Below, piece by piece: positions 27,797 through 59,641 of a stretch of DNA of 64,000 nt; the stretch's first letter is position 1, and the number at the start of each line of letters is the position of its first letter. The notes beneath the pieces are model-generated. The model was not told the DNA's origin and ran no database searches. It saw nothing but the letters and a program-made list of their open reading frames with translations. The stretch is from Spirochaetia bacterium (GTDB taxonomy: Bacteria; Spirochaetota; Spirochaetia; DSM-27196; Salinispiraceae): contig JBBRCZ010000005.1 in NCBI GenBank assembly GCA_038204425.1, forward strand, positions 1 through 64,000, written 5' to 3'. The position numbers and the translations under genes are program-made.

Positions 27797-27800
27797 TGTC

Positions 27801-30951: not shown

Positions 30952-30952
30952 T

Positions 30953-31450
30953 TTGACGCACTTAAATGCCAAGCTTCAAGCTCAAATGGTGGATGTTTCT
31001 GGCAAAGAACCAAGCACTCGCACAGCTCGCGCCCAAGGTCTGGTCTATTTACCAGATCAAGCCGCTCAGGCCTTGGGGCTTAAACAAAGCCAAGACTTTC
31101 CTCTTGGAAAGCACGAAATTATAGGTCCCAAGGGGCCAGTTTTTCAGACCGCTATTATTGCCGGCATTATGGCCGCCAAAAAGACTAGCAGCTTAATTCC
31201 GCTCTGCCACCCACTCGCGCTAGACAAGGTTGAAATAGACATAGTAGTTAACGAGGCAGGTCTGATAGAAATTGTGGCATGCTGCAAAACCCAGCATAAG
31301 ACTGGTGTAGAAATGGAAGCTCTGACCGCGGTCAGCGTAGCTGCGTTGACAATTTATGATATGTGTAAAGCGCTTAGTCACGACATCGAGATTAGGTCGA
31401 TTCGATTGTTGGAAAAAACGGGCGGAAAGTCAGACTATGGAAAGCACTAG
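30953..31450 (+). CDS. moaC: Cyclic pyranopterin monophosphate synthase
   Basis: [36 protein letters not shown] start after GGAGG. Confidence 0.95.
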
Positions 31451-32618
31451 GCACCCAAAACCCGGCTTGCAGCCTCATTATCATCAGTTTGAACTAGCTA
31501 TTTGCGGTTATAAAAACAGCGGCAAGACCAGCTTGATCGTGTCCTTGGTTCGAGCTCTATCAAAAAAATACAACTTGGCCTATCTCAAACACGATGCCCA
31601 TCACTTTGAACTGGACCATCAAGGCAAAGACACTTGGCTCGTCAAACAAGCCGGCGCTCACGAAGTGACGATTGCTAATGCCGAAAAATTCGGGCACTAC
31701 GGTGGCGGCGAGCAAGCCAGCATGCTCGATACTTTTCAGTTCCTGTCATGTGATGCACTTTTGGTCGAGGGTCACAAAATGAGCTCAATGCAACGCGTAA
31801 TGTTGGTGGATCAAGAAGCGACTATTTTTGACGATCCAGCCTGGACAGACAGTCCACCGCTAGCTGTTGTGATGCCTTGGCAAACAAATACTGCAGCATG
31901 GCAACGCTGCATTGACCAAGCTCGGGCTCGTTTTGGCACTATTCCATGTTTTTTTCGCAACGACATAGACCAAATTGCTTCGTTTGTAGAAGGTTTATGG
32001 CAGCGCAAGAAACCTGCCCTATTTGGCCTGATCCTGACGGGAGGAAAATCGCAGCGCATGGGCAGCGACAAGGCATTGTTGCCGTACCATGGCCAAAGTC
32101 AGATAAAACGAGCCGCAGCGCTCTTGGAGCAGACCTGCCAAGAGGTTTTTGTTTCGTGCCGTGCTGACCAAGAGCATGACCCTGTTAGGAGCAAGTACGA
32201 AAGCATTGCGGATAGCTTTGCAGCTATGGGACCAACATCGGGCATACTTTCGGCACTGCGTTTTGGCAATGAGCGCGCCAAGCAAACTGCGGGGTTGCCG
32301 CCTGCTTGGTTGGTCTTGGCTTGCGACTTGCCCAAGGTGGATGCTCATGTTTTGGCCCAATTGACCCAAGCGAGAGATTTTTTTCGCTTTGCGACTGCAT
32401 TTTACAACAGCGATGGTTTGCCAGAACCGCTTTGTACCATCTATGAGCCCAAGGCCTACGGCAGACTATTGCAGTTTATTGCCCGTGCTTATGAATGCCC
32501 AAGAAAGTTTTTGATCAATAGCCGCATCAAGACTTTGGCGCCACCAAGCCCAGATTGCCTCGACAATGCCAATTCTCCCGAGGACTACCAAAGGATTAGC
32601 CATGATCTCAGTAGCTGA
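31437..32618 (+). CDS. mobA: MobB-MobA fusion (molybdopterin-guanine dinucleotide biosynthesis)
   Basis: N-terminal [18 protein letters not shown] (MobB); C-terminal [27 protein letters not shown] (MobA). Confidence 0.9.
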
Positions 32619-33843
32619 AGCCGACGCAGTTATCAGCAAGGCTGTAAAAGAGAGTTATGCTGAGCGAGTTTACGTCCAACCCTATCAAAAAGTCTCACTT
32701 GAGTCTTCATTGGGAAGAACTATGACCGAGGACTTGCTTGCAGACCGAGACCAGCCACCTTTTGACAGGGTTGCTATGGATGGTTTATCCATCAAGTTCG
32801 ATCCTGCCGTTTTGGACCAAACACTCAATAAAGTTGCATATCTGCAGGCTGGAAGCCCAAACATTTTTGGTTCACCATGGACGCAAGCTAATGATGCACT
32901 GGAAGTAATGACGGGTGCCGCCTTAATAGAGCCATGGAATACCATCATCCCGTGGGAGGACTTGGACCAAGTCGGCACCGACAACCTTGGTAGTTGGCGC
33001 ATTAAGGCAGGACTTAGGGTCCGTGAGGATCAACACATTCATCATCGCGCTAGTGATTATGCAGCCGGACAAAACTTGCTGCAGTCCGGCACTACCATCG
33101 GACCTGCACATATTCACTTGCTAGCAAGCAACGGCGTAAGCAACGTAAGTGTCTACCGCCAGCCTCAAATTGCACTTGTATCTACAGGTGACGAGCTTGT
33201 GGCGGTGGAAGATACACCCTTGCCCCATCAAATCCGGCGCAGCAACCTAATAGCGATAGCCGCCGCCTTACACCGCCTTGGCCTAACGAGCAAGTATAAC
33301 GCTCATGCCATTGATGAGCGGGAAGACTTACATACCAAGCTGGCTCTTGCCCTCCAGACCTGCGACATTGTGATTGTTTCTGGTGCCGTTTCAATGGGCA
33401 GTTTTGACTTAGTGCCTTCCATCTTGCAAGAACTGGGCTGCTCGTGCCTCTTTCACAAGATTGCGCAAAAGCCAGGCAAGCCATTATGGTTTGGCAAAGG
33501 GCCACACGGCCAATTGATTTTTGCGCTTCCTGGCAATCCTGTTTCTAGTTTAGTATGCTTTAGACGCTTGGTTCTTCCTTGGATATGCCCCGCTTTAAAT
33601 GCTGCCAACATGCTTCACCTTCCCTTGGCAGAAGACTGCAATCCTGCTCACAGTGGCTTTACCCGTTTTGCACCAGCATGCCTTGTGGATCAAGGATTTG
33701 GCCCGAGCCAACTCAGCCTAGGCAAAGCACAAGGCTCAGGAAACTTTTTTAGTTTGATACCCAGTGATGGAATAGTAGAAATTCCGCCAAATGATAAACC
33801 CTACCCGGCGGGAAGCGTCGTTCGCTTCTTTCCTTGGTATTAA
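32602..33843 (+). CDS. moeA: Molybdopterin molybdotransferase
   Basis: PPFDRVAMDG, STGDEL, SGAVSMG, KPGKP, LPGNPVS. Confidence 0.95.
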   Translation: MISVAEADAVISKAVKESYAERVYVQPYQKVSLESSLGRTMTEDLLADRDQPPFDRVAMDGLSIKFDPAVLDQTLNKVAYLQAGSPNIFGSPWTQANDALEVMTGAALIEPWNTIIPWEDLDQVGTDNLGSWRIKAGLRVREDQHIHHRASDYAAGQNLLQSGTTIGPAHIHLLASNGVSNVSVYRQPQIALVSTGDELVAVEDTPLPHQIRRSNLIAIAAALHRLGLTSKYNAHAIDEREDLHTKLALALQTCDIVIVSGAVSMGSFDLVPSILQELGCSCLFHKIAQKPGKPLWFGKGPHGQLIFALPGNPVSSLVCFRRLVLPWICPALNAANMLHLPLAEDCNPAHSGFTRFAPACLVDQGFGPSQLSLGKAQGSGNFFSLIPSDGIVEIPPNDKPYPAGSVVRFFPWY

Positions 33844-33853
33844 GGATACAGCT

Positions 33854-34093
33854 ATGACCGTTCGTCTTCGATACTTTGCGGCATTTAGAGAAATCTGCCA
33901 ATTGGACCAAGAGACCTATTGCGGCCAGTTTAAAACTGTGGCCGATCTATATGAGCTTATTTGCAAAAAATATCAGTTTACGCTGAATATGCAACAAACT
34001 CGTCCTGCGATTAACGACCGTTTTTGTGCTTGGGACAATGCTCTTCAAGAAAATGACTTGGTAGTGTTTATTCCTCCTGTGGCTGGAGGCTGA
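33854..34093 (+). CDS. moaD: Molybdopterin synthase sulfur carrier
   Basis: YFAAFRE; C-terminal FIPPVAGG. Confidence 0.93.
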   Translation: MTVRLRYFAAFREICQLDQETYCGQFKTVADLYELICKKYQFTLNMQQTRPAINDRFCAWDNALQENDLVVFIPPVAGG

Positions 34094-34095
34094 GT

Positions 34096-34554
34096 ATGTC
34101 ACTACAAAACGAGGCCAACACTCGGGCCAAATTTATGTTGAGTCAAGGCCCTGTACATTTAGAGTACCAGCATTCTTGCAGTCCAGAATCGGGCGCCTTA
34201 GTCAGCTTTGATGGTTTAGTTCGCAACAACAACGAAGGCAAAGACGTCTTACGACTTGAATACTCGGCCTATGCCGAACTAGCCCTGCACGAAGGTAGTC
34301 TGATCGTTAAAGAGGCTGTTGACTGTTTCGCTTTGCAGGCCGCCCTTTGCAGTCACGCTCTTGGTGTACTTGAAATAGGCCAGCTTGCGGTCAGCATTAG
34401 GGTTTGGGCCTCGCATCGCGGTGAGGGCTTTGAAGCCTGCCGTTGGATTATTGACCAAGTAAAGTCTCGCGTCCCTATCTGGAAGAAAGAAAGCTACACC
34501 GACGGGACATGCGAATGGGTCTTGTGCCAGCATGTGGGACACCATGGACACTGA
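34096..34554 (+). CDS. moaE: Molybdopterin synthase catalytic subunit
   Basis: GALVSFDGLVR, LEYSAY, HR.EGF, KSRVPIWKKE. Confidence 0.95.
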   Translation: MSLQNEANTRAKFMLSQGPVHLEYQHSCSPESGALVSFDGLVRNNNEGKDVLRLEYSAYAELALHEGSLIVKEAVDCFALQAALCSHALGVLEIGQLAVSIRVWASHRGEGFEACRWIIDQVKSRVPIWKKESYTDGTCEWVLCQHVGHHGH

Positions 34555-35653
34555 CGAAGCGCCCTCCAGCCAACGCTATCAACGCCACTTTGGCCTCGAA
34601 GGCTGGGGTTCGGCTGGTCAGAAAAAGCTAGGCAAGACCAGAGTATTGATTGTTGGACTGGGCGGACTTGGTTGTCCGGCCGCGCGCTATTTGGCGGCCG
34701 CTGGCGTCGGCACTCTGATCTTGATGGACCCTGACAAGGTAGAACTGAGTAATCTTCAAAGGCAAGTTCTCTACGATGATGCCGACTGCGGCTCGACCAA
34801 AGTCAGCGTAGCCGGCCACAAGTTGCGCGCACAAAATCCCTTAATCAAGGTCGTAGAAATAAAGGACTATTTTAGAGCAGACATCGATCCAGATTTTGTT
34901 GCGTCACTTGACCTAGTTCTTGATTGCACCGACAATTTTGCAAGTCGCTTTGCAATTCATGATATTTGCAGACAATTTTCAATCAACCTTGTACAAGCTG
35001 CCCTCTACACATGGGAGGGTCAACTGGCAGTTTTTGACTTTGGCGAACAGACGCAAGGTCCTTGTCTACGCTGCCTGTGGCCAGAGCAGCCGCTCGACGG
35101 TTGTGTTGGAACTTGTGGTGAACTTGGCGTAGCCGGAGCCCTGGCAGGTGCGCTCGGAAGCCTTCAGGCCTTAAGTGGACTACGTATTTTGCTCGGCCTG
35201 CCATGCCAAAAGCGCGGCGAGCTCTTTATTCTCGATGGACGTAACATGCAAAGTCGCATCTTAAACTGGGAAGTCTGCACCACATGCAGCTGCCAACGAG
35301 TCGCCAAGTACGATAAAGCGCACGTCCTGGCAACACACCCGACCAGCGACTTTGATCAATTGAACCAGAAAGTGATACTCGATATTCGAGAAACCCACGA
35401 AATCGGCCTGGATGACTACAGCATCTTAGAAAATTATGGCGCTAGCCGCATCACCCACCTTTCCAAAAGCAAACTGGTGAGCATGTCAGCTCAAGCCATT
35501 GCTCAACACTGCGGTCCCAACAATGAGCCAGTCACTATCATCTGCTCCGCCGGAGTGCGCAGCGCCATAATAGTCGACTATCTAAAAAAAAACGGTTACC
35601 AGAACTTTGTTTCTTTGGATGGGGGCATGATGGGTATCAAGCAAAGGCGCTAA
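34544..35653 (+). CDS. moeB: MoeB/ThiF adenylyltransferase with C-terminal rhodanese domain
   Basis: RYQRH, GLGGLG, SNLQRQ, DCTDN, PCLRC; rhodanese ICSAGVRS..SLDGG. Confidence 0.92.
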   Translation: MDTDEAPSSQRYQRHFGLEGWGSAGQKKLGKTRVLIVGLGGLGCPAARYLAAAGVGTLILMDPDKVELSNLQRQVLYDDADCGSTKVSVAGHKLRAQNPLIKVVEIKDYFRADIDPDFVASLDLVLDCTDNFASRFAIHDICRQFSINLVQAALYTWEGQLAVFDFGEQTQGPCLRCLWPEQPLDGCVGTCGELGVAGALAGALGSLQALSGLRILLGLPCQKRGELFILDGRNMQSRILNWEVCTTCSCQRVAKYDKAHVLATHPTSDFDQLNQKVILDIRETHEIGLDDYSILENYGASRITHLSKSKLVSMSAQAIAQHCGPNNEPVTIICSAGVRSAIIVDYLKKNGYQNFVSLDGGMMGIKQRR

Positions 35654-47839: not shown

Positions 47840-50308
47840 ATGTTTGACCTCAATTTACCCTTTACCAACCCAGTTGCAGTTTTTGCTGTTCTGATAGGGC
47901 TTATTCTGATAGTCCCACTTATATTCAAACCACTTCGCATTCCAGTAGTAGCAGGATTGATACTTGGGGGCCTTTTGATTGGGCCACACGGTTTGGGTTT
48001 ATTGGTGCGTGGCGAAACACCTCAACTGCTCGGAAAAATCGGCATTATCTATATTATGTTTTTGGCTGGGCTAGAAATAGATCTACACCAACTGTCCAAG
48101 CGCAAGGGTCAAACTATCCTATTTGGTGTTTTGACCTTTCTTGTTCCATTGGGCATGGGCTTTGCTGGTGCTTTTGGCCTTTTTGGCATGGCTGCAGTAC
48201 CGGCTTTACTCTTGGCCTCTATGTTTTCGTCACACACTTTGTTGACTTACCCAGAAATTAGCCGATTTGGCCTTAGTCGTAACCGCGCTGTTACCGTGAC
48301 CATCGGCGGAACCATGATCACCAATCTATGCGCTCTCTTGATCCTTGCACTTAGCGCAACCTGGGCACAAGGCAAGCTTGACCAATGGTATTTTGTACGC
48401 TTGGCTATTTCACTCTTGATCTATTGTGTGGTGGTTTTTGCTGTAATACCGTTTATGGCACGACGTGCTCTCAAGAGTTTGTCTGCTGACGGCGATATTC
48501 AGTTCCTGTTGATTTTCTGCATCATGTTTATCTCGGCTGCATTGGCACAGCCTGCAGGACTTGAGCCAGTTATTGGTGCATTTTTGATCGGGATCGCCCT
48601 CAACCGCCTAATTCCTGATAGCAGTGTACTTATGAACCGACTCAACTTTGTTGGCAATAGTCTATTCATTCCACTTTTTTTGGTAGACGTTGGTTTAATC
48701 ATTAATCCAAGTCAGTTTTTTGGCAATATACAGTCCTGGTTTTTTGCGGCTTTTATGGTTTTTGTAGCCATCGTCTCCAAGTGGATTCCAGCCTGGGTCT
48801 CCCAGAAGGCTTTTAAATTTAGCCCGGCCGAGCGAGGCATAATTTTTGGTCTGTCGGTCAACCAGGCTGCGTCTACTTTGGCGGCCGTCTTGGTGGGTAG
48901 GGAACTGGGCCTGTTTGATGACATTGTCGTAACGGCTACTGTCGTCATGATTTTGGTAAGCTGTATTGTTGGCAGTGTAGTCAGCGAACGTAGCGCACGC
49001 AAACTCAAAATGGCCTTTGCGAGCGTTAGTCATGACGAAAAAGAAGAATCAATTCGGTTGATGGTGAGTCTATCAAATCCTGAAACGGCTCCTGCCTTGG
49101 CCGAACTTGCCACCTATCTAGTTCCAAAAAATAGCAGCGAAGCCATTTATCCTACCGTTATGGTGCAAGATGGCACTCATGTCGAAGAAGACTTGGCCAA
49201 GGCCGAATCAGTTATTGCGCTAGCGATGACGCGAATTTTGCCCTTGGGCTTAAAGGCTATTCCCGTTTCTAGTTTGGATGTTAACATTGCAAGTGGTCTT
49301 CTGCGAGTTTCTAAAGCACGTCGTATTCAAGTCATGCTCTTGGGCTGGAACGGGCACTTTGGTGTCGGGCGGGCCTTGTTTGGTAGCATCCTAGATCAGC
49401 TAATCAGCAACAGCCCCTTGAGACTGGTAGTCGCCAGACTGTTTGGTTCTATTTCAGAGGTCAAACGAGTGGTGTTGATCCTTCCGCCATTTATCGAACA
49501 CCAGCAAGATATCTGGCCGAGTCTTGGAATTGTGTTTGACTTAGCCAAGCGACTTGGTCTTAAAATACTGCTGCTAAGTCAAGCTCTCACTTTAGACAAC
49601 CTGTCAAAGAACATAAAGGGTCTTCACCAATCACTTGAAACCGTAGAACTCAAGGACTGGTCAGATTTGTTGCCTAGCATGACTAAGCTGAGCAACAAGA
49701 CTGACCTGATTGCTTTGGCTCATGTCCGCAAGCACCAATTGGCTTGGCGACCCAGCCTAGATAGGCTACCAAAGAGCCTCAGCGAGACCTTCCTTGACAA
49801 CAACCTTTTGATTGTCTATCCGGGCACAAAACCGGACACCAAACGACAGCATTCTATAGCAGATGATTTGTCTGATAACGCAAGCCACTATGACAGTCCA
49901 GCAGACCAAGCACCTATTTCTTACGCACGCTACTTTGAAAGAACCAGCAAACCGGAACAAGCAATTCTAGAAGTCCTCGCTCAACAATTTGACGAACACA
50001 AAGCCTTTAGACTCCTTCATACTTTTAGCCCCGACGGAAAGTTGCAGGGGGTAGAACTCAAACCCGGTGTCATTCTCTTGCACCACCATGATGAAAACGT
50101 GGAGCAGTTTTGGATTGGCTGCGCTGTCTACTCAGACCTAGGACGACCAATCGACAGCGAGAATCCAATAGACTGTATTGTTCTGTTGGTGAGTCCTGCC
50201 CAAAAGGCGGCAGAAGAACACTTGGTGGTTCTATCTCGGATTGCGCGCTGGGTTGGGCAGGATGACTTCAAAAAAACTATCACTAGCTTGTGTACGAGCT
50301 TTTCTTAG
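47840..50308 (+). CDS. Cation:proton antiporter (CPA2) with USP-like and PTS EIIA-like C-terminal domains
   Basis: GLLIGPHG, MFLAGLE, EPVIGAF, PLFLVDVG; soluble tail ending GVILLHHH..LLVSP..EEHLVVLSRIA. Confidence 0.85.
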   Translation: MFDLNLPFTNPVAVFAVLIGLILIVPLIFKPLRIPVVAGLILGGLLIGPHGLGLLVRGETPQLLGKIGIIYIMFLAGLEIDLHQLSKRKGQTILFGVLTFLVPLGMGFAGAFGLFGMAAVPALLLASMFSSHTLLTYPEISRFGLSRNRAVTVTIGGTMITNLCALLILALSATWAQGKLDQWYFVRLAISLLIYCVVVFAVIPFMARRALKSLSADGDIQFLLIFCIMFISAALAQPAGLEPVIGAFLIGIALNRLIPDSSVLMNRLNFVGNSLFIPLFLVDVGLIINPSQFFGNIQSWFFAAFMVFVAIVSKWIPAWVSQKAFKFSPAERGIIFGLSVNQAASTLAAVLVGRELGLFDDIVVTATVVMILVSCIVGSVVSERSARKLKMAFASVSHDEKEESIRLMVSLSNPETAPALAELATYLVPKNSSEAIYPTVMVQDGTHVEEDLAKAESVIALAMTRILPLGLKAIPVSSLDVNIASGLLRVSKARRIQVMLLGWNGHFGVGRALFGSILDQLISNSPLRLVVARLFGSISEVKRVVLILPPFIEHQQDIWPSLGIVFDLAKRLGLKILLLSQALTLDNLSKNIKGLHQSLETVELKDWSDLLPSMTKLSNKTDLIALAHVRKHQLAWRPSLDRLPKSLSETFLDNNLLIVYPGTKPDTKRQHSIADDLSDNASHYDSPADQAPISYARYFERTSKPEQAILEVLAQQFDEHKAFRLLHTFSPDGKLQGVELKPGVILLHHHDENVEQFWIGCAVYSDLGRPIDSENPIDCIVLLVSPAQKAAEEHLVVLSRIARWVGQDDFKKTITSLCTSFS

Positions 50309-50490
50309 ACGACCCGACTACTATTCGATCTGTTGCTGAAATTTACCTACGTATTAGTTGCCTCTTTTTTATATAACTACGCTTTTGTATATTTATGGTG
50401 AACAAGGGCTGGCAAAAATCTGCTGGGATCCATCAGGAAAGTCTTAAGCTGTCGGTCTTTAAGCCAGACGTCACTGAATCGACATCAATC

Positions 50491-50507
50491 TTGGCACGAT
50501 TATTGCA
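50491..50507 (+). promoter_or_regulatory. Sigma-54 (-24/-12) promoter
   Basis: TTGGCACGATTATTGCA matches TGGCACG-N4-TTGC with GG-N10-GC spacing, just upstream of the cheY-like ATG. Confidence 0.8.
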
Positions 50508-50529
50508 TGTAATTGGTAGAGGTAAAAAA

Positions 50530-50895
50530 ATGAAGTTGCTAATCGTAGACGACTCCAACATCATGCGCCGGGCCATAGAAAAATATCTAACAGATTTTAA
50601 TCTCGAACTGGTAGGAACTGCCGGTGACGGCGAAGCAGCACTTCAACTCTTTAAGGCTCATCTTCCTGAATTGGTTACGCTTGATATCACCATGCCGCGC
50701 ATGGACGGCTTGGCTTGTCTTGATGAGATTATGCGTTTGCGCCCTGAAACTAAGGTCTTGGTAATTAGCGCTCTAAAGGACCCGTCTACTGGTCTTCAGG
50801 CTTTGCGCAAAGGTGCTAAAGGATTCTTGGCCAAGCCTTTTTCTCCAGAAGAAATACGTAGTGAAGTTCAGCAGATCCTTGGGCTATCATCATGA
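50530..50895 (+). CDS. Single-domain CheY-like response regulator
   Basis: LIVDDS, TLDITMPRMDG (Asp52), VISA, AKPF; GAGG RBS. Confidence 0.92.
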   Translation: MKLLIVDDSNIMRRAIEKYLTDFNLELVGTAGDGEAALQLFKAHLPELVTLDITMPRMDGLACLDEIMRLRPETKVLVISALKDPSTGLQALRKGAKGFLAKPFSPEEIRSEVQQILGLSS

Positions 50896-51338
50896 CTGAA
50901 GTAGAACTAAAAGCATTTACTCGTGTTGTTACTCAATACTTTAACAACGTCACCGGTACAGCGGCTCAACTTGGGCTACCCTACATCAAAGGAGAACGCC
51001 AAGAAACCTTTGATTATACTGGCGTGATTGGCATTTCTGGCTCCCGCAAGGGTGGTGTTTATTACACCGCTGGCAAACAGCTTTTAGAAGCATTGGGCGC
51101 CTTTATCCTTGGGGATGAGCCACTCGATGATGAAGCGCTTTACGATTTGGTAGGCGAGCTTACCAACACTATTGCTGGCAACATGCGAGAGATTTTTGGC
51201 TCCAACTTTTTGATTTCGGTCCCAATCATCATGAAGGGTAAAATTGATGATATCGTTATCAAACTCAAACCACCAGTCTTTATAATTCCAATAATCTGGA
51301 ATGGCATGAACAGTCACCTAGCGATTGGCCTGGAGTAG
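50892..51338 (+). CDS. cheX: CheX family phospho-aspartate phosphatase
   Basis: YTGVIGISG, GELTNTIAGN (E-x2-N motif), ISVP. Confidence 0.9.
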   Translation: MTEVELKAFTRVVTQYFNNVTGTAAQLGLPYIKGERQETFDYTGVIGISGSRKGGVYYTAGKQLLEALGAFILGDEPLDDEALYDLVGELTNTIAGNMREIFGSNFLISVPIIMKGKIDDIVIKLKPPVFIIPIIWNGMNSHLAIGLE

Positions 51339-51341
51339 AAC

Positions 51342-54080
51342 ATGGAACATTCAATGCTCGACATAATGTGGGTGATAATGGCTGCAAGCTTGGTTTTTGT
51401 TATGCAGGCCGGCTTTGCCATGGTAGAATCTGGCCTTACTCGCTCCAAAAATAGTATCAACGTAGCTATAAAGAATCTGACAGATCTTGGCGTCTCTTTG
51501 ATCGTATACTGGCTAGTGGGCTTTGGCCTCATGTTTGGACTGAGCTTTTCTGGCATTTTTGGCACTAGCGAGTTCTTCTTTGACAGCGGCGACGCCTGGC
51601 CAATGGTCTTTTGCCTTTTTCAGGCCGTGTTCTGCAGCACTGCTGCCACCATCGTGTCGGGCGCAGTGGCGGAGCGCATGCGCTATATTTCGTACATCTT
51701 TGCCACCATACTTATGGCGCTGGTGATCTACCCAGTATTTGGCCACTGGGCCTGGGGCGGCGCCTTGCAAGGGTCAGCAAGTGGTTGGCTGGCTAAGCTT
51801 GGCTTTGTTGACTTTGCAGGGTCTACCGTTGTGCACAGTGTGGGCGCTTGGGTAGCGCTGGCGATTCTAGTTATTATTGGACCTCGCGCCGGTCGCTACA
51901 AGAGCGATGGAACGGTTGCGCCCTTGAGCGGTAGTAACATCCCCATGGCAGTATTGGGAGTAATACTCTTGTGGTTTGGTTGGTTTGGCTTTAACGGCGG
52001 AAGCACTCTGGCAGCGAGTGAAAACGTAGCGGGGATAATCCTTCGCACTTGTTTGGCCGGTGCGGCTGGAATGCTATCTGCATTGCTAATCGGTTGGCCA
52101 CTACTCAAAAAACCCGACGTCAACTTAGTCATCAACGGCGCATTGGCTGGACTTGTTGCCATCACCGCTGGCTGCCACGCCGTCAGTGCGCCTCAGTCAA
52201 TCTTGATTGGTCTGGTTGCTGGCGTGCTGATGTTCGCAAGTAGCATTCTTCTCGACAAATTGCGCATAGATGATGCGGTTGGTGCAATTCCTGTGCACTT
52301 GGTAGCCGGCATCTGGGGTACCTTGGCGGTTGCAATTTTTGGCAATCCAGACATTTTAGGAACCGGCTTGAGCCCATTAGAACAGCTTGGTATACAGGGC
52401 TTAGGTATAACAGTTTGTGGTATGTGGTCGTTTGGCGTGGCTTGGTTAGTTGTAAAGCTTATCAATGCTATCACGCCAATTAGAGTAAGCCAAATAGACG
52501 AAGCCAATGGACTCAACAAAGCAGAACACGGAGTAAGCACCGAGATCTACGATCTATTCTCAGTATTGGATCAGCAAGCAAAAACGGGCGATTTGAGCCT
52601 ACGCGCGCCTGAAGAACCATTTACTGAGGCCGGACAAATTGCCGGGATGTACAACAACGTTATGAGCAAACTGGAAGCCGATACTATTGCCAAAGATGAA
52701 TACTTGCAGATACTGCACAATGTCAGTGACGGTCTTTTTTTGCTGGACCAAGATGGGGTTATTGGGCCGTATTACGCCGCTTCGCTCAACAAGATATTTG
52801 AAACAGATCAATTAGCAGGCCAAAAACTCAGCGCTGTTCTGGCACGTTTTGTGGCCGAAGAAACACGTGCAGTAGCCGAAGACTTTTTGCAGTCCTGCTT
52901 CGATTCAAGAATTGCTTGGCGTCATTTAGAAAAAATGAATCCATTGCTGGACGCCATGGCCTATTTTGACAACGGACAAGGTGATTTTTTGGAAAAAAAC
53001 TTGCAGTTTCTTTTTAGGCGCCTGGAAGACGGTAGTGTCGTTAAACGATTGTTAATTTTAGTACGTGACACAAGTGCCGAGAAAAATCTAAGCGAAGAGA
53101 TAGAAAAAACGCGCGAACTAGGCAAGCAGGAAATGGAAATGCTGTATCGCGTAATGCACGTTGAACCAAAGACTTTGCAAGAATTTCTTGACGGTCTACA
53201 TCGGGATCTTGAAGCTATAAATGGCCAGTTTAGGGCTGGAGAAGGCAATGTTCACGAAAGGCTCAGCCAGGTTTTTCGCTTAACACATGCCATAAAAGGT
53301 GACGCTGAGCTACTTCAACTTGATTTTATTGGTGGCAAAGCAGAAGAACTAGAGAATCGTGTGCGAGAACTTTTGAAGGTTTCTGAGCCCGGCGGAGAAG
53401 AATTTTTGGCACTGACCCTGCTGTATTCGGAACTTGCTTCGGCATCTACCAAACTGAGAGAACTTTTACAAAAATGGACTGGCTTCCAAGCGCAAACTCA
53501 GTCTATCGGATTTGATGGTTACTTGCGCCAATCTTTGGCCAGCATGGCCAGCCGTTTGGCAAGCCGCTACAACAAAGAGGTAAGTCTAGATGCAAGCGGC
53601 CTCAGTTTGCAGTTTTTGTCACCGCAACTGCGAAAGCCCATCAAAGATATCCTGGTGCAGTTTGTCAGAAACGCAGTGTTTCACGGTTTTGAGACGCCCG
53701 ATGTGCGTGGGAACCAAGGAAAGGCTAGCGCCGGCCTTATTCAAATTAGCGGGCTCCGCCAAGATAAAATGCTAGTTGTACGTTTTAGGGATGATGGCAA
53801 GGGACTTGACACGGGCGCACTACGACAAGAAGCGGTAAAAAGAGGCTTGATGGACAGTGCCAAAGCTAGTGCTATGAGTGAACGCGATGCACTGGGCTTA
53901 ATCTTTCAAAGTGGCTTTACCACGGTAGCGGTCGCAGATTCGGTGGCGGGCAAGGGTATAGGCATGTCACTGGTTCGCAGCTTGGTCAAGGAAACTGGTT
54001 CTAGCCTGAGTATGCGTACCAAAAAGGGTGCCTACACTGAGTTTGTTCTAAGTATTCCGTTGTCGGGAGCCAAGCAATGA
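51342..54080 (+). CDS. Ammonium transporter fused to HAMP-like, PAS-like, Hpt and CheA-type HATPase domains
   Basis: Amt: MQAGFAMVESG, FQAVF, HWAWG, DFAGSTVVH, WFGWFGFNGGS, DDAVGAIPVH. Hpt: FRLTHAIKGDA. HATPase: VRNAVFHG, DDGKGLD, IFQSGFTT, GKGIGM. Confidence 0.92.
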   Translation: MEHSMLDIMWVIMAASLVFVMQAGFAMVESGLTRSKNSINVAIKNLTDLGVSLIVYWLVGFGLMFGLSFSGIFGTSEFFFDSGDAWPMVFCLFQAVFCSTAATIVSGAVAERMRYISYIFATILMALVIYPVFGHWAWGGALQGSASGWLAKLGFVDFAGSTVVHSVGAWVALAILVIIGPRAGRYKSDGTVAPLSGSNIPMAVLGVILLWFGWFGFNGGSTLAASENVAGIILRTCLAGAAGMLSALLIGWPLLKKPDVNLVINGALAGLVAITAGCHAVSAPQSILIGLVAGVLMFASSILLDKLRIDDAVGAIPVHLVAGIWGTLAVAIFGNPDILGTGLSPLEQLGIQGLGITVCGMWSFGVAWLVVKLINAITPIRVSQIDEANGLNKAEHGVSTEIYDLFSVLDQQAKTGDLSLRAPEEPFTEAGQIAGMYNNVMSKLEADTIAKDEYLQILHNVSDGLFLLDQDGVIGPYYAASLNKIFETDQLAGQKLSAVLARFVAEETRAVAEDFLQSCFDSRIAWRHLEKMNPLLDAMAYFDNGQGDFLEKNLQFLFRRLEDGSVVKRLLILVRDTSAEKNLSEEIEKTRELGKQEMEMLYRVMHVEPKTLQEFLDGLHRDLEAINGQFRAGEGNVHERLSQVFRLTHAIKGDAELLQLDFIGGKAEELENRVRELLKVSEPGGEEFLALTLLYSELASASTKLRELLQKWTGFQAQTQSIGFDGYLRQSLASMASRLASRYNKEVSLDASGLSLQFLSPQLRKPIKDILVQFVRNAVFHGFETPDVRGNQGKASAGLIQISGLRQDKMLVVRFRDDGKGLDTGALRQEAVKRGLMDSAKASAMSERDALGLIFQSGFTTVAVADSVAGKGIGMSLVRSLVKETGSSLSMRTKKGAYTEFVLSIPLSGAKQ

Positions 54081-55171
54081 ATAACCCTGACGGTCCAGTC
54101 TGCAATCACGAGCGCTGCAAGCTCAACCAGTTTTTTCACCACTCTCGAGAAGCCATGTTCATAACCGAGCGGGATGGCAGCTTTGTAGATGTCAACCCGG
54201 CTTTTGAGGATTTACTTGGTTACTCGCGTAGCCATCTTTTGACCAGTCAAGTCAGCTTGGTGCTAGCAAACGAAGATGATAGAGTCGACTATCAACGCAG
54301 CATCGAAACCGATGGTGTGGTACATGACTACCCAATAGCCCTGCGACACCAAGATGGCACACTCTTGTTTGGCATGATTGACGCCATTGTATGGCGCTCC
54401 AATGGACGAATAGCTGGCTACCACGGCATAATCCGCACACGCGCTGCACTTATGGAGTCGTTTCGCAGCTATCTCAACCGACTCAAAGCTGAGAAACATC
54501 AAGTGAGGCAAGAGCGCCGCAATCTCATTTCTGATACGCAAATGCTGACCCGCTATTTGACTGATGACTTGATTGAATACATCAAAAAAACTGGCCGCAA
54601 TCCACTAGAAACCAGCCAACAAAGGGTGAGCGTCTTGTTCTTTGACATTCGCAACTCAACCGGAATTGCCGAAAAGCTTAGCCCGGATCAGTTTGCTTCT
54701 TTTTTGAGTGACATCCTGACCGACATTATGGATCTAATTTACGGCTGCCAAGGCTCGGTTAATAAAATACTGGGCGACGGCATTATGGCTACCTTTGGTG
54801 TGCCACTCTCTACAGGTACCGACTCTTTTCATGCTGTTGAGGCGGCTTTGCACATTCGGGACTACCTCAAGACTTTTAACGATGTTAGGCCCGATTTTCT
54901 CATACAACCAGTTGCTGCCGGCATTGGCATTGCAACCGGAACGGTCTTCGCCGGTGTTATTGGATCGGTTAGACGGCAAGAATACACCGTACTTGGTGAC
55001 GCAGTAAATATCGCTAGTCGATTGGAGTCTCTCACCAAACAAGCAGGAGAAACTATACTACTCGACGAAACCACTTTTCAAGAGGTGCGCGAAACCTATG
55101 CCTGTCGCCCGGTTCTGGAAGGTCGCCTGCGGGGTCGAGAAGAAGAAGTGCGTATTTACGGCATAAGATAG
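54077..55171 (+). CDS. PAS-domain class III adenylate cyclase
   Basis: PAS (VDVNPAFEDLLGYSR..LRHQDG); FFDIRNST, VNKILGDG, EYTVLGDAVNIASRLE. Confidence 0.92.
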   Translation: MNNPDGPVCNHERCKLNQFFHHSREAMFITERDGSFVDVNPAFEDLLGYSRSHLLTSQVSLVLANEDDRVDYQRSIETDGVVHDYPIALRHQDGTLLFGMIDAIVWRSNGRIAGYHGIIRTRAALMESFRSYLNRLKAEKHQVRQERRNLISDTQMLTRYLTDDLIEYIKKTGRNPLETSQQRVSVLFFDIRNSTGIAEKLSPDQFASFLSDILTDIMDLIYGCQGSVNKILGDGIMATFGVPLSTGTDSFHAVEAALHIRDYLKTFNDVRPDFLIQPVAAGIGIATGTVFAGVIGSVRRQEYTVLGDAVNIASRLESLTKQAGETILLDETTFQEVRETYACRPVLEGRLRGREEEVRIYGIR

Positions 55172-55261
55172 TTTCTTGCATAGTTAAATTGGCAACATTC
55201 GCTTGCCAAAATGTAAAGCTTACCTTACATTTTAGCGTATGCACTTGGGGGTGTTATAGGA

Positions 55262-56563
55262 ATGATCAAGCGAAGCAGACTCTCCATATATACGTTTATT
55301 GCGGTATTTAGTTCTATCTTAATCGTTGGCACGCTTGCGATGCCTTTGGCCTTGGATAGTATTCAAAAAAACTACATTTCCATCCAAGCAGACGTTAACG
55401 CCCGTCAAGCAAAAGCTATGGCTCAGTTTATTCGCTCACGCGTGGCTCAAGGCGTAAGTCGTGAGCAGGTGATCGAGGACTTCCAAGCAAGCATCCAAGG
55501 CAGTGCCACCGAACGTGGTTATGTCTGCATTGTGGACCGCATAAGCACCAATTTTTTGTGTCATCCCATGACTTCGATGCTTGGCCAATCGGTGGCGGTT
55601 AAAAAAGCGGTCTTTGACCGTAGTTTTAACCGCAATCAATTTGAACCTTGGGAACAAGCTATCACGAACCCGCAAAGTGGGAGCGGACTTTTGGCTTTTG
55701 ACAACTTTAAGGCCGAGGAAGTTGTCCACTCAGAAGTTATTGAAGAACTTGGTTGGGTTGTAAATTCTCATGAGAACACAGAACGAGTCCAAACCGAAAT
55801 AGCAAACATCCGCACCTATGTTGTCATCGGCGCTGCTATTTTTGCTTTTCTTTTGGCGTTTCCAATTTCGTTTGCTGTGCGATCGGTTAGCCGCAGATAC
55901 GAAAGACAAATCGAACATAGCAACATGCTGATTGCTGCAGAACAAGAAAAAGCTGACAACTTGCTGCTTAACATCTTACCTTCTTCTATTGCTCGTCGTA
56001 TGAAAGACGGCCAAAAAATTATCGTCAATCACTTTGAAAAAGTAGGCATCCTGTTTTGTGACATAGTCAACTTTACGCGATTTTCTGCGCGCACTACGCC
56101 AGACAACGTGGTTCGTTTGCTCAATCGCATTTTTTCTGACTTTGACGCCCTGTGCAACAAATATGGCATAGAAAAAATAAAGACTATCGGCGACGCCTAC
56201 ATGGCAGTTGGCGGACTACCGCTCGCGAGTGACAGGCCCTTGCAAAGACTGGCCGACCTTGCTTTGGAAATGCTTACAGTTGTTGAGAAGCTCGACCTAA
56301 ACGTGCAAGTGCGTATCGGTTTGCACGTTGGAGATGTAGTTGCAGGAGTAATTGGTACCAACAAGTTTAGCTACGACCTTTGGGGCGACGCGGTCAATGT
56401 TGCATCAAGACTAGAATCCAGCGGTCAAAAAGGCCGAGTGCACGTTAGTCAAGAAGTCAAAGATGTACTTGGAGACGCGTATAGCTTTGTAGACAATGGC
56501 TTAGTTGCGCTCAAGGGTAAAGGCAAACTCCAAACCTGGTTTTTAGAAAAGAAACCAGTTTAA
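55262..56563 (+). CDS. Membrane-bound class III adenylate cyclase with extracytoplasmic sensor domain
   Basis: Two TM segments flanking a Cache-like region; LLLNILP, FCDIVNFT, EKIKTIGDAYM, SYDLWGDAVNVASRLES. Confidence 0.92.
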   Translation: MIKRSRLSIYTFIAVFSSILIVGTLAMPLALDSIQKNYISIQADVNARQAKAMAQFIRSRVAQGVSREQVIEDFQASIQGSATERGYVCIVDRISTNFLCHPMTSMLGQSVAVKKAVFDRSFNRNQFEPWEQAITNPQSGSGLLAFDNFKAEEVVHSEVIEELGWVVNSHENTERVQTEIANIRTYVVIGAAIFAFLLAFPISFAVRSVSRRYERQIEHSNMLIAAEQEKADNLLLNILPSSIARRMKDGQKIIVNHFEKVGILFCDIVNFTRFSARTTPDNVVRLLNRIFSDFDALCNKYGIEKIKTIGDAYMAVGGLPLASDRPLQRLADLALEMLTVVEKLDLNVQVRIGLHVGDVVAGVIGTNKFSYDLWGDAVNVASRLESSGQKGRVHVSQEVKDVLGDAYSFVDNGLVALKGKGKLQTWFLEKKPV

Positions 56564-56623
56564 GGTCGCTCTTTTAAAAGCCACACTTCTGCCGGCGCGG
56601 TAAACAAGGCAAGAGGTGGATTT

Positions 56624-57508
56624 ATGTTTCTAAAGTTTTGTCGCCGTGTAGCGGCGCTCTTGGCACTCAGCATGCTGAGCATGGTCTCTGGGTCGTGTGG
56701 CGGACCCAATCTGGTTCCAATTGCAACAGGCGAGATACCAACAGTCTCTACAGGCATTGCCATCACCATTCAGAGCACTAGCTCACGAGCGGTGCTGGTT
56801 CCAGAGCAGTCTTCTATTCTAGCCAACACCTGGGAAGTCATTATCTTGCAAAACGAGATTATTGTCTTTACTACAGCATTGGAGGCTGGTAGCAACTCGA
56901 TTGTGGCACTCGAGCCTGGACTTTATGATTTGGTTGTACTGGCAGGCTATCGCAAGTCAAGCAGCTCTAGCACTACAAGTCTATTGGGCAGTGCGTCCAC
57001 CGACAACCAAGTCCAAGTGATTGCCGGAGCAGTAAGCACTGTTTCATTGGCACTGAAAGCAATTGATTTTGAATTTGCTGTTCCAAGCCAAGTCGACCAG
57101 GGCTCACAACTTAGTCTCAGTGTAAGCGGTCAAAGCCGTAACTACCGGCTTGGTATGTGCCTGACTGGTTCTACAAGCGAACGCCCGCGGCTTCGCTCTA
57201 GCTACCTTTGGAACGGCTACCAGGACTTCATCTCAGTTTCTGGAAGTCCAAGTGACTGGGTGGCTACCACCAGTCTTGCGCTGAACAAGCCAGCTGGCAT
57301 CGCCGACCTCGACTTTAATGGAGCCTACATTAGTTTATGCAACTCAGGCGCAGCTGACGGCTCACTATATCAACGTACGCGCTACATCTGGAAATGGCTC
57401 AATCGCTACGACATGGCGGACGACGGCCCACTGACCAGCCTTGTTTCGCGGCAAATACAGATCAATCCGCCGTCGACCGGCGTCAACATAGGCATAGGAT
57501 GGGAGTAA
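56624..57508 (+). CDS. Hypothetical lipoprotein
   Basis: Signal peptide ending VSGSC; Ser/Thr-rich body; GAGG RBS. Confidence 0.7.
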   Translation: MFLKFCRRVAALLALSMLSMVSGSCGGPNLVPIATGEIPTVSTGIAITIQSTSSRAVLVPEQSSILANTWEVIILQNEIIVFTTALEAGSNSIVALEPGLYDLVVLAGYRKSSSSSTTSLLGSASTDNQVQVIAGAVSTVSLALKAIDFEFAVPSQVDQGSQLSLSVSGQSRNYRLGMCLTGSTSERPRLRSSYLWNGYQDFISVSGSPSDWVATTSLALNKPAGIADLDFNGAYISLCNSGAADGSLYQRTRYIWKWLNRYDMADDGPLTSLVSRQIQINPPSTGVNIGIGWE

Positions 57509-57541
57509 AAACAGCTGTGCAAGACAGGGGAATAAGGTCAA

Positions 57542-57872
57542 CTACAAGATGTTGAATGCATTGACTCTACTGGCTCCCGACACCACTAAACTTGTCGCTG
57601 CTGTTTCGTTAGAGCCATTTGCGTTGACCGAGCTTGCGTACATCAAGATAGGGCAGAAAATTTTAGTCAACAACCATTTCTTCCGTGCTTTTATTTGATT
57701 AACTAATGTTTGCGGCAATGGCACTGGAAATGTTTATTCTGTCGAAGGAACCTAAGTTATAGTCTTGCCTAACTACAACGACGCTCGGCATAACTGCAAA
57801 TAGGCAAGAACTCAGACTGGTAAAAAATACTAGTCCTAACAAAGCCAAACGAAAAATTGCCTGGCGGTTTAA
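57542..57872 (-). pseudogene. GIN-domain (DUF2807-like) lipoprotein remnant
   Basis: LSSC lipobox, LGSFDRINISSA, then in-frame stops around NFLPYLDVR, then LVVSGASRVNAFN in another frame. Confidence 0.55.
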
Positions 57873-57945
57873 ACCGCCGGACTGATTTCTGCCCGGCGCG
57901 CCTTTTGCATTTTTTCTCATTGTAACCATACGTAAGTCCTTGGCC

Positions 57946-58098
57946 CTCGTTGAGGGTCACTTTGCCGTCACCATTGGCATCTGCCGCACCGTCCAAGTCC
58001 TGCATTAAACTACACCTACGGCGCGCGTCATTTATGGCCCACAAGAGCCGTTGTCGTTCTTGCCCACCATTGTTGGCACCAACAAAAAGCGCGATTCT
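57946..58098 (-). pseudogene. Caspase-family (peptidase C14-like) protein remnant
   Basis: RIALFVGANNGGQERQRLLWAINDA joined almost directly to GAADANGDGKVTLNE; catalytic region absent. Confidence 0.65.
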
Positions 58099-58103
58099 CT
58101 CAA

Positions 58104-58415
58104 CTATTCCGCTGGACTCAGATTGAGCTTAAAGTGGTCTTCGAGTTTCAATTGCCAGTTTGACCGTTTGAGAATGCTAGTAATCTGCAAACAAGTTTGA
58201 TCGACCGGGATTTCGCTACTGGCAGTAATAAAGTAGAAATTTTCAAAACCTGGTTCGTCATCAAACTGATAGGCGTACGGCAATAGAACTGAACCTTGCT
58301 GCTTGCCTTCACTCGTTGTATGTAGTGTTGATGGATAGCGTAGTGTCATATGCTGACTTCCATCAATGGAAATAATGATGCCAAATGGGCTACCATTTGC
58401 GACATACAATACTTG
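58104..58415 (-). pseudogene. C-terminal fragment of an anti-sigma/ActD-like protein
   Basis: QVLYVANGSPFGIIISIDG..LRYP..LLPYAYQFDDEPGFENFYFITA. Confidence 0.55.
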
Positions 58416-58509
58416 CCGCTTGTCTACGCTCTACTTGGACAAAGACCTCTTGCATGGTGTCCATCAGTGCTTCCTGATCCTTGAGCAAAAACTTACAACG
58501 CCGCAGCAC
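58390..58509 (-). pseudogene. ECF sigma factor region-2 remnant
   Basis: GGAGG RBS then VLRRCKFLLKDQEALMDTMQEVFVQVERRQ; stop after 39 codons. Confidence 0.65.
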
Positions 58510-58654
58510 CCTAGTTCCTCCGGAATCTGTCAAGACTGGTTTTACCCGCTTTCTTTGAGTACCAAAAACGTATATCTTATGTTCTGATCGTTGGTTTGAT
58601 GGAAAAACTACGGTTTGATTAGCGTCCCCAAAATCACGGATAGGAGATTCTCAG

Positions 58655-59641
58655 GTGCGAAAAGACTTTCTTCTCAAAGACAACAAGATGACTGCCTGTG
58701 CTGCAAATGAATCCACAGTAATGATATTTACTAATCCCGACACAAACGAAAGAGAATGGCTGGCCGAGGCTTTTGACATTTCTGCTCATACACTTAGCTC
58801 AGCAATCGATCATGACGAGCAAGGTCGCCTTGAGGTGGGCCCAAATCACATTTCGCTTATTCTCAAAATACCAAAAAACTATTGCTCAGAAGACAATTTT
58901 GTTTTTAGAGTTTTATCGTTGGGCATGTTTCTCTTTAAGGATCGGCTCATCATCGTTTCTCCCAACGAGAACGTCCCTTTGGACGAAAGCTCTTCGATAC
59001 ACGTCATCAATGACCCCATAGATATTGTACTTAGAGTCTTTGGTGGCACCATTTCCCATTTTTTGGGGCACCTAAAGGTCATCAACCTTTTGTCAGAAGC
59101 CCTTGAGAAAAAAGTCACCAACTCTATGGCAAATGAGCATCTCTTGGATATGTTCACTATAGAAAAGAGCTTAGTCTACTACCTAAACGGCCTGGGTTCT
59201 AATCAAAGCCTAATGGAAAAGTTTAAACTCAACGCTAAGCGCATTGGACTTGATGATGACCACCTAGAGTTTTTGGACGACATCATCATCGACAATGCGC
59301 AGTGCAACAAACAAGCCGAAATTTATTCCAATATTTTAACCGGACTAATGGAAGCGCGTGGATCAATTGTAAGCAACAATCTCAACTTGTTGATCAAACG
59401 ACTAACCATCGTCAACGTGGTTTTTATGCCACTCAATCTGATTGCCAGCATGGGCGGAATGTCTGAGTTCTCTCAAATGACCCTCGGGGTCCCCTTTTGG
59501 ATCAGCTACCTGCTTTTTGCTTTTGGTATTACCATTATTGGCTTTTTTACCTTTTTTTTGGTCAGACGCTATTCGGGAGATAACAAGGTTCAGCGCCATA
59601 GGCCCAAACAGCACAATCTAAGACGACGAGCGCGGGATTAG
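58655..59641 (+). CDS. corA: CorA family divalent cation transporter
   Basis: SIVSNNLN..KRLT..FMPLNLIASMGGMSEF and two C-terminal TM helices. Confidence 0.88.
   Translation: MRKDFLLKDNKMTACAANESTVMIFTNPDTNEREWLAEAFDISAHTLSSAIDHDEQGRLEVGPNHISLILKIPKNYCSEDNFVFRVLSLGMFLFKDRLIIVSPNENVPLDESSSIHVINDPIDIVLRVFGGTISHFLGHLKVINLLSEALEKKVTNSMANEHLLDMFTIEKSLVYYLNGLGSNQSLMEKFKLNAKRIGLDDDHLEFLDDIIIDNAQCNKQAEIYSNILTGLMEARGSIVSNNLNLLIKRLTIVNVVFMPLNLIASMGGMSEFSQMTLGVPFWISYLLFAFGITIIGFFTFFLVRRYSGDNKVQRHRPKQHNLRRRARD

Follow-up and report, generated by a model that had tools for sequence, protein, structure and literature searches.

This study deals with a four-gene operon in a stretch of 64,000 nucleotides (the window) from a bacterium of the class Spirochaetia (family Salinispiraceae; assembly GCA_038204425.1, contig JBBRCZ010000005.1, positions 1 to 64,000 of the forward strand). 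The operon encodes a single-domain CheY-like receiver, a CheX-family phosphatase, a 912-residue protein in which an ammonium transporter (Amt) domain is fused to a CheA-type kinase core, and a PAS class III nucleotidyl cyclase. It is a real and conserved module, a new transducer variant within the known class of Amt receptors and a complete candidate pathway, and its function is one that we infer from sequence and context. The reading that is held here with moderate confidence is that of a spirochaete ammonium-receptor phosphorelay with fast reset, whose likely output in this bacterium is cyclic AMP (cAMP).

The open reading frame (ORF) list and the Pfam assignments place the four genes on the + strand between 50395 and 55171 (Table 1). 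The receiver gene most likely starts at the ATG at 50530 (MKLLIVDD...) and not at the upstream ATG at 50395 given in the ORF list. It ends at 50895 and the CheX gene starts at 50892, forming a 4-nt ATGA overlap; the CheX gene ends at 51338 and the kinase gene starts at 51342, leaving a gap of 3 nt, and the kinase gene ends at 54080 and overlaps by 4 nt the cyclase gene that starts at 54077. An earlier reading of this DNA, made from the letters without database searches (the sequence-only reading), had described four genes with these same tight junctions, and the ORF coordinates reproduce them. Its start of the operon at 50491 corresponds to the promoter position and not to the gene start.

The 912-residue protein was found to match Ammonium_transp (3.8e-115, residues 10-398), Hpt (1.1e-06, 612-699) and HATPase_c (5.7e-10, 767-908) in Pfam. 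The closest solved relatives of its Amt part are the receptors Sd-Amt1 (8QJ3, E 2.3e-118, aligned 3-441) and Ks-Amt5 (6EU6, E 3.6e-101), and AmtB-type transporters gave values of about 1e-37. Sd-Amt1 has the architecture Amt-HAMP-GGDEF, and the paper describing it (PMC11152129; this and the other papers are cited from parts of their text) identifies two ammonium sites, N1 and N2, and lists as their ligand and switch residues Q22, E29, K44, N45, D48, T104, S107 and Y119. The whole set is present in the fusion protein as Q22, E29, K44, N45, D48, T103, S106 and Y118, together with the twin His165/His319, and is kept in full in 30 of 35 family members. The Amt part had been proposed earlier as the ammonium input, and it does carry the ligand set of the solved ammonium receptors. 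With a C-terminal cytoplasmic transducer (residues 402-912) attached to the 11-helix Amt core and its N1/N2 and twin His residues, the protein has the three sequence features of the ammonium receptor class.

The transducer begins with a HAMP-like linker, in which a conserved motif, RAPxEPFTExGxIAxxYN, was recognized; its RAPxEPFTE connector joins the two helices. The linker aligns with the region of Sd-Amt1 that is termed HAMP in PMC11152129, and in dCache-type relatives, HAMP domains that Pfam recognises fall on the same positions of the profile. The motif recurs in Amt fusions of many phyla. A Pfam scan of 30 linker-bearing Amt fusions showed HisKA-HATPase outputs with or without a receiver, GGDEF with or without EAL, SpoIIE or MCPsignal, and a few of them have only PAS domains or nothing past the Amt domain.

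The cytoplasmic part was modelled with AlphaFold2 from an alignment of residues 401-912 of 33 loci (mean pLDDT 84, pTM 0.43), and the model was compared with 48,161 chains using VIA-align. In full-length numbering, the model shows helices at 402-415 and 429-459, a PAS-like sheet at 464-576, a helical bundle at 609-721 and an alpha/beta domain at 723-909. The PAS-like domain resembles the sensor region of the sensor histidine kinase 2YKF (Z 12.8, root-mean-square deviation (rmsd) 2.1 over 106 residues). The bundle matches the P1 domain of CheA (1TQG; Z 14.6, rmsd 2.0 over 100 residues), a match which counts only together with the Pfam Hpt assignment and the invariant H649-x-x-K-G, because helical bundles score high by default. 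The phospho-acceptor His649 (codon 53286-53288) lies in this HxxKG motif, of which H649, K652 and G653 are invariant in 33/33 sequences. The last domain superposes on CheA 1B3Q with Z 21.4 (rmsd 2.5 over 175 residues), as against at most 16 for classical histidine kinase catalytic domains; the residues of its N, G1 and G2 boxes are likewise invariant in 33/33, and the NCBIfam CheA models align at 737-909 only, scoring far below their whole-protein cut-offs.

The dimerisation domain P3 (H-kinase_dim) gave no Pfam match, and structures comprising P3 and P4 superpose on the protein only through P4. In the model the last helix of P1 extends to residue 721 and P4 begins at 723, so that there is no room for P3. 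No CheW match was obtained for a CheW-like P5, and the protein ends three residues after P4. According to Berry et al. 2023 (PMC10782961), a CheW domain is present in 100% of the surveyed CheA sequences, and the CheA dimerisation domain always occurs with the kinase and CheW domains. Identification of the fusion as a CheA was rejected on the absence of P3 and P5; it is CheA-like in chemistry but not a CheA, because only P1 and P4 are present. The term Amt-CheA-type kinase of the sequence-only reading is therefore apt for the P1 and P4 domains but not for the protein as a whole.

The single-domain receiver has the acidic pocket, Ser/Thr, aromatic and Lys residues of CheY, with the phospho-acceptor Asp52 encoded at 50683-50685. 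D7, D8, D52 and K102 are invariant in 35/35 family members and F99 is nearly so, while position 80 is Ser here. The CheX gene product was recognized by PF13690 (3.9e-15, 56.1 bits against a cut-off of 27) and carries an ELTN motif at residues 89-92; the narrow NCBIfam equivalog model for Thermotogales CheX gave 30 against a cut-off of 280. Its residues D85, E89, N92 and P111, which we take to be the D-x3-E-x2-N ... P active-site motif of the CheC/CheX/FliY phosphatases, are invariant in 35/35. Both Asp52 and the ELTN motif, which had been pointed out before, are present.

More than 100 full-length relatives of the 912-residue protein were found at 46-59% identity. The source names shown for them are all 'ammonium transporter' or 'hypothetical protein'; Treponema, Spirochaeta and other Spirochaetota are the sources of those with a named origin. 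Among cultured species, Spirochaeta dissipatitropha has an orthologue, WP_460054415.1. Out of 401 genomes sampled from the phylum, 17 (this one included) match through residue 906 or beyond, and three more are cut by a contig end. Gene order was analysed in 41 distinct related loci (numbered with L) after duplicates had been dropped (L046 = L023, L053 = L024). Two of them, L060 and L063, have another architecture, and 35 of the remaining 39 have enough upstream DNA; in L039 and L042 the contig breaks off within the CheX gene. The receiver and CheX genes lie directly upstream of the kinase gene in 34 of the 35 assessable loci, and chance adjacency of the three was rejected on this conservation. 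The sequence-only reading had spoken of a self-contained circuit, which agrees with a receiver-CheX-kinase module lacking MCP, CheW, CheR and CheB. Of the full order that it foresaw, the first three genes are conserved (34/35) but a cyclase-type fourth gene is found in only 16 of 28 relatives.

Among these 28 relatives assessable for the fourth gene, the remaining cases comprise a SpoIIE-type (PP2C) phosphatase in six and an unrelated or absent gene in six. The cyclase-type genes consist of three PAS-cyclases as in the window, nine PAS-PAS forms, two with the cyclase domain only and two receiver-cyclase fusions, the latter being the fourth genes of L061 and L062. Orthologues of the window-type PAS-cyclase, 50-56% identical, occupy the same position in L029, L035 and L044, and four further loci end inside a PAS-encoding start of the fourth gene. 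The SpoIIE-type gene overlaps or abuts the kinase gene in L038, L040, L041, L048, L049 and L050, with a CBS domain in 4/6. Overall, 22 of the 28 relatives have an enzyme-type fourth gene, which in 20 of them is tightly coupled to that of the kinase.

The cyclase of the window (PF00211 Guanylate_cyc 4.4e-23, 82 bits) and its three close orthologues keep D190, K230, D234, D308, N311 and R315, presumably the metal Asp pair (D190/D234), the specificity pair (K230/D308) and the transition-state residues (N311/R315). The enzyme is apparently catalytically intact, and the earlier assignment of a PAS adenylate cyclase gene accords with this PAS plus class III architecture and its canonical catalytic residues. 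On the other hand, eight aligned PAS-PAS proteins are without the first metal Asp and without the Asp, Asn and Arg of the other half-site (Table 1), and these are probably pseudo-cyclases or obligate heterodimer partners.

In the phosphorelay proposed here, an Amt receptor of the Sd-Amt1/Ks-Amt5 type would drive the Hpt and P4 kinase core via the HAMP-like linker and the PAS-like domain. Ammonium in the N1/N2 pocket would shift the C-terminus of the Amt domain, as in Sd-Amt1, and the occupancy of N1/N2 would alter the rate of His649 phosphorylation by P4. The phosphate may then move from His649 to Asp52 of the co-encoded receiver, and its fast removal by CheX would let receiver phosphorylation track ammonium in near real time. 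The phosphorylated receiver is proposed to act on the effector encoded next, here the PAS adenylate cyclase, with cAMP as the likely output. All biochemical steps of this relay are inferred, as are its output and the direction in which it responds to ammonium. The conflict between trimeric receptor and dimeric kinase, which is discussed in the Ks-Amt5 (PMC5764959) and Sd-Amt1 (PMC11152129) work, may be avoided in this protein because the acceptor His is placed on a monomeric Hpt bundle and not on a dimeric DHp.

As output, the enzyme encoded next, here the apparently active PAS-cyclase, is favoured because the fourth gene, though variable, is usually enzymatic. It is further favoured by the receiver-cyclase fusions of L061 and L062, by a cyclase carried in another cassette of this genome (the C7 cassette) and by direct Amt-SpoIIE fusions in two examined genomes of the Spirochaetota family f28. 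A complex prediction for two cyclase chains and the receiver gave a score of 0.47 (runs 0.47, 0.51 and 0.46), the best of three controls being 0.00; the runs share at least 77% of contacts, with a partner pLDDT of at least 82. In the calibration, 116 of 157 solved complexes passed the mark, as did 2 of 215 mismatched pairs, and scores up to 0.60 included only 18 of the 157 solved complexes along with both passing mismatches; unlike the calibration, the prediction here used custom alignments and two cyclase copies. The predicted complex lends weak support to an action of the receiver on the cyclase.

The promoter element upstream of the receiver gene, TGGCAC-GATTA-TTGCA at 50492-50507, is the sole zero-mismatch sigma-54 motif of the window, whereas motifs with one mismatch (6 against 4.4 expected) are not above chance. 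The whole 2.84-Mb genome has 12 perfect motifs, and three of them precede amt genes, namely this operon and both of the amt-glnK operons. The genome contains these two ordinary amt-glnK pairs, one rpoN and six strong genes for sigma-54 activators (bacterial enhancer-binding proteins, bEBP). The sigma-54 promoter of the sequence-only reading agrees with a perfect motif 22 nt before the ATG, and the genome has both rpoN and activator genes. The operon is probably transcribed from this promoter together with the amt-glnK operons, i.e. under nitrogen control. No shared activator site was seen by eye upstream of the three amt-linked sigma-54 promoters, no motif finder having been run. Scans of 50000-58800 for terminators and sigma-70 promoters gave counts not above those of shuffles, and their hits are of descriptive use only. 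The absence of nearby MCP, CheW, CheR, CheB and glnK genes, claimed earlier, was borne out by a Pfam sweep of the 45 other ORFs of the window, which contained no MCP, CheW, CheR, CheB or P-II match; the genome-wide CheW and P-II matches are all on contigs other than that of the window.

Two separate observations concern promoters. In L022 (about 5800-5970), L023 and L024, which are without a sigma-54 motif, a TTGACA-type promoter overlaps a palindrome, ACAC-ACGAT-TGTGT or ACAT-ACGAA-TATGT, upstream of the receiver gene, which could be an operator for a regulator. Elsewhere in this genome (G000:C1:539564, + strand), a perfect sigma-54 motif lies 9 nt before the gene for a 296-residue sigma-70-family sigma factor, which recalls the RpoN-RpoS cascade of Borrelia.

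Table 1. Positions of the features discussed. Residue numbers refer to the 912-residue fusion.
Feature	Position	Strand	Basis or remark
Sigma-54-type -24/-12 promoter element, TGGCAC-N5-TTGCA	50492..50507	+	22 nt 5' of receiver ATG
Single-domain CheY-like receiver, 121 aa	50530..50895	+	Pfam Response_reg 6.4e-28
CheX-family phosphatase, 148 aa	50892..51338	+	Pfam CheX
912-aa fusion: Amt, HAMP-like linker, PAS-like domain, Hpt, CheA-type P4	51342..54080	+	
Amt domain, residues 10-398	51369..52535	+	Pfam PF00909, 385 bits
HAMP-like two-helix linker, residues 402-459	52545..52718	+	AlphaFold2 helices, alignments
PAS-like domain, residues 464-576	52731..53069	+	AlphaFold2 five-strand sheet with helices
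Hpt (P1-like) helical bundle, residues 608-711	53163..53474	+	Pfam Hpt, VIA-align
CheA-type ATP-binding domain (P4), residues 723-909	53508..54068	+	VIA-align, NCBIfam
PAS class III nucleotidyl cyclase, 364 aa	54077..55171	+	Pfam PAS and Guanylate_cyc
Second class III cyclase, 433 aa	55262..56563	+	Pfam Guanylate_cyc 1.9e-59; unit membership uncertain
Lipoprotein-like ORF, 294 aa	56624..57508	+	Signal-peptide-like N-terminus with Cys; unit membership uncertain
C7 cassette: HAMP-cyclase, receiver, CheX, membrane kinase	L108 (G000:C7:114000-126000) 3108-7810		
C21 cassette: Hpt-HATPase kinase, CheX, receiver, 520-aa protein with C-terminal receiver	L109 (G000:C21:15000-25000) 2820-6693		
PAS-PAS-cyclase-homology fourth genes lacking catalytic residues	L022 9519-11054, L023 6726-8279, L042, L045, L051, L052, L054, L056		

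A number of findings weigh against the proposed ammonium-to-cAMP phosphorelay. As regards the input, Q22R and N45V replacements were found in 5 of the 35 family members, and the N1/N2 set also occurs in the genome's own glnK-linked Amt on contig C4, so it is not specific to receptors; the motif as proof of a pure sensor was rejected on account of this paralogue. PMC11152129 moreover states that some proteins with the N1/N2 motif do transport, and places known transporters in the same motif cluster. The linker of the 912-residue protein gave no match to Pfam HAMP. As regards the module, the kinase of L033 has neither receiver nor CheX, and the fourth gene is unrelated or absent in six of the 28 relatives mentioned above. 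Of the 16 cyclase-type cases, 8 (in the PAS-PAS group) have a cyclase domain that is probably inactive, and cAMP can for this reason not be the universal output. The window cyclase itself is without a receiver domain, and the score of its predicted complex with the receiver is weak. With respect to nitrogen control, a sigma-54 motif with at most one mismatch precedes the receiver gene in only 12 of 34 relatives (perfect in 6/34), and no activator binding site was found near the operon's promoter when the upstream regions were read by eye.

The main alternative to cAMP output is control of the flagellar motor, i.e. ammonium taxis without chemoreceptors, in which the phosphorylated receiver would bind the flagellar switch, CheX would end the signal with the speed required for behaviour and the cyclase would be a separate passenger. 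CheX is the chemotaxis CheY-P phosphatase in spirochaetes. This genome has a che operon on contig C10 with CheA-, CheW-, CheX- and CheY-like genes side by side, and the CheY of this operon (C10:104881-105318), which itself adjoins a CheX, is 37% identical to the CheY-like single-domain receiver of the window, in which K102 and F99 are kept. The six relatives with no effector gene after the kinase, and a Planctomycetota locus (L088, described below) that couples Amt to the taxis machinery in another way, also speak for taxis. Against it speak the absence of CheR, CheB and CheW near the operon, the mostly tightly coupled enzyme-type fourth genes and the receiver-cyclase fusions in two loci, and the closest paralogue of the receiver (41% identity) sits in another non-che cassette, that of contig C21. 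Taxis is regarded as an unlikely explanation, though one that deserves serious weight.

Another possibility is that the receiver and CheX only drain phosphate from the Hpt domain, the true output being transfer from His649 to a receiver protein encoded elsewhere, for example a receiver-cyclase or a receiver-PP2C. L061 and L062 have a receiver-cyclase after the kinase despite a stand-alone receiver and CheX, and the C21 cassette continues with the 520-residue protein bearing a C-terminal receiver. In the window itself, a receiver-SpoIIE (PP2C) protein is encoded at 21431-22951 on the - strand, 28 kb upstream of the operon, and is a possible alternative phospho-acceptor. A phosphate-sink role of CheY-like domains fused to CheA is discussed in PMC10782961. 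On the other hand, most loci, the window included, have no second receiver in the operon, and a sink normally replaces a phosphatase; according to PMC10782961, CheC, CheX and CheZ are missing from 93% of the genomes that have one single CheA-receiver fusion. A sink is accordingly rated as quite improbable. The least convincing explanation, which we hold to be very unlikely, is a transceptor or flux sensor whose Amt transports while the PAS-kinase part reports flux or internal nitrogen status in place of GlnK control: the ligand set shared with the glnK-linked Amt, the transporters in the same motif cluster (PMC11152129), the missing glnK beside this amt and the PAS-like domain between receptor and kinase would suit it, but both characterised fused relatives bind and do not transport ammonium (PMC5764959, PMC11152129), and uptake is already provided for in this genome by two amt-glnK pairs.

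Returning to the phosphorelay with cAMP output, its kinase core was found to belong to a wider family. The genome carries two more receiver-CheX-kinase cassettes, on contigs C7 and C21, with the same P3/P5-less kinase core and other inputs; the C7 kinase is 27% identical to residues 458-908 of the fusion. A profile of the cytoplasmic part retrieved 28,587 representatives at E <= 1e-30, presumably including canonical CheAs. The best 150 of these have PAS-Hpt-P4 at the C-terminus behind N-terminal regions of very different length, and 20 scanned relatives carry sensors such as Amt, Reg_prop/Y_Y_Y, dCache-HAMP, CHASE4-HAMP, PilJ and ROK-PAS. GAF is a further N-terminal sensor of this set. No description of such a PAS-Hpt-P4 sensor-kinase group without P3 or P5 was found in the literature searched. 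It can tentatively be speculated that this is a distinct chemotaxis-derived pathway type, in which an array-free P1+P4 core of the CheA class is plugged onto sensors, here a trimeric Amt, and would convert external ammonium within seconds into a second-messenger or partner-switching output (cAMP here, PP2C elsewhere) and not into motor switching.

Besides Spirochaetota loci, the Hpt/P4 form of the Amt fusion was found in a single locus whose title reads only 'MAG: bacterium' and in one cluster of Bacteroidota metagenome-assembled genomes (MAGs). A metagenome scan with the Bacteroidota Amt-PAS-Hpt-P4 protein (P0128) gave 79 loci, none of which has a CheX or Hpt-P4 match; only L114 extended, to residue 704. 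In family f28 of the phylum, 75 genomes were sampled; 35 of them have a match at E <= 1e-150 that is confined to the Amt-linker part, and the two f28 loci examined encode Amt fused directly to SpoIIE/PP2C (L191 2532-4661, L192 2259-4433).

Other Amt architectures were observed alongside these. A locus of another Spirochaetota family encodes an Amt-PAS-HATPase_c_2 (RsbW-like) protein (L193 2087-4357). Spirochaete Amt proteins of 600-646 residues with about 190-220 extra residues that have no Pfam match are found in L060 (4747-6630), L063 (4666-6603) and L194 (2313-4115); the extension in L060 and L063 aligns with the linker and the PAS-like part of the kinase protein, and the three proteins have no kinase part and no adjoining receiver or CheX gene. 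The Planctomycetota MAG contig of L088 (4139-10729) encodes a canonical CheA (Hpt, H-kinase_dim, HATPase_c and CheW), followed by an Amt-MCPsignal protein, a second MCP and CheW, and its Amt domain apparently serves as a chemoreceptor input.

Downstream of the operon, a gap of 90 nt with no terminator-like site separates the PAS cyclase gene from that of a second cyclase, in which hydropathy shows two transmembrane-like segments flanking an outside region of about 145 residues. In the related loci, the first cyclase gene has no second one after it. The lipoprotein-like ORF beyond it has no Pfam or NCBIfam match, and the first terminator-like hairpin downstream lies at 57861-57880. Further away in the window, the region 26468-35653 (+ strand) encodes an MFS transporter, a 709-residue molybdopterin oxidoreductase (Fe4S4, Molybdopterin, Molydop_binding) and molybdenum-cofactor proteins (MoaA-like, MobA/B, MoeA, MoaD/E and ThiF-like), and may represent a gene cluster for an assimilatory nitrate reductase.

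Research on ammonium receptors built on Amt is recent and has so far covered two proteins, and the operon brings a candidate whole pathway of receptor-kinase, receiver, phosphatase and effector enzyme together in one place; because of this completeness, reconstitution in vitro from ammonium to output is directly possible. The study further shows the use of a CheA catalytic core outside chemoreceptor arrays, fused to many kinds of sensors, which bears on the definition and evolution of chemotaxis kinases. As regards the biology of spirochaetes, ammonium emerges as a signal that may control cAMP or PP2C-type switches and possibly motility. The open literature searched, with subscription journals and the domain list in Fig. 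7B of PMC11152129 outside the search, contained no paper describing this architecture or operon, and the one supplement file of PMC11152129 searched has no occurrence of Hpt, HATPase, CheW or Spirochaet in its text. In the available part of the 2023 Amt review (PMC10433425), Ks-Amt5 is the only fused form mentioned. The statement that no characterised system of this composition is known can be retained as far as the literature found is concerned, but Amt receptors with fused transducers have been characterised, namely Ks-Amt5 and Sd-Amt1.

Sd-Amt1 of Shewanella denitrificans (8QJ3, 8QJ4, 8QPF; PMC11152129) is similar in the Amt core and the helical linker, which align, and in the N1/N2 ligands and the twin His. 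Sd-Amt1 signals through a diguanylate cyclase attached directly to the receptor, whereas here the receptor carries a PAS-like domain and an Hpt/P4 core that depends on a separate receiver, and is accompanied by a phosphatase of its own and an effector gene. In case of Ks-Amt5 from 'Candidatus Kuenenia stuttgartiensis' (6EU6, PMC5764959), an Amt receptor is likewise fused to a histidine kinase, whose phosphorylation responds to ammonium. That kinase is of the classical dimeric DHp-CA type and has no HAMP domain, whereas the present protein combines an acceptor His on an Hpt bundle with a CheA-type catalytic domain. Moreover, the response regulator of Ks-Amt5 is described in PMC5764959 as 'yet to be identified', whereas here a receiver and a phosphatase are encoded in the same operon. 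Other Amt-linker-PAS fusions have the Amt domain and the linker motif in common with the 912-residue protein and differ in their output domains. The spirochaete CheA-CheY-CheX pathway, finally, is alike in the P1 and P4 folds, the single-domain receiver and CheX; unlike that pathway, the module of this study has no P3, P5, CheW, MCP, CheR or CheB, and carries its sensor within the kinase protein.

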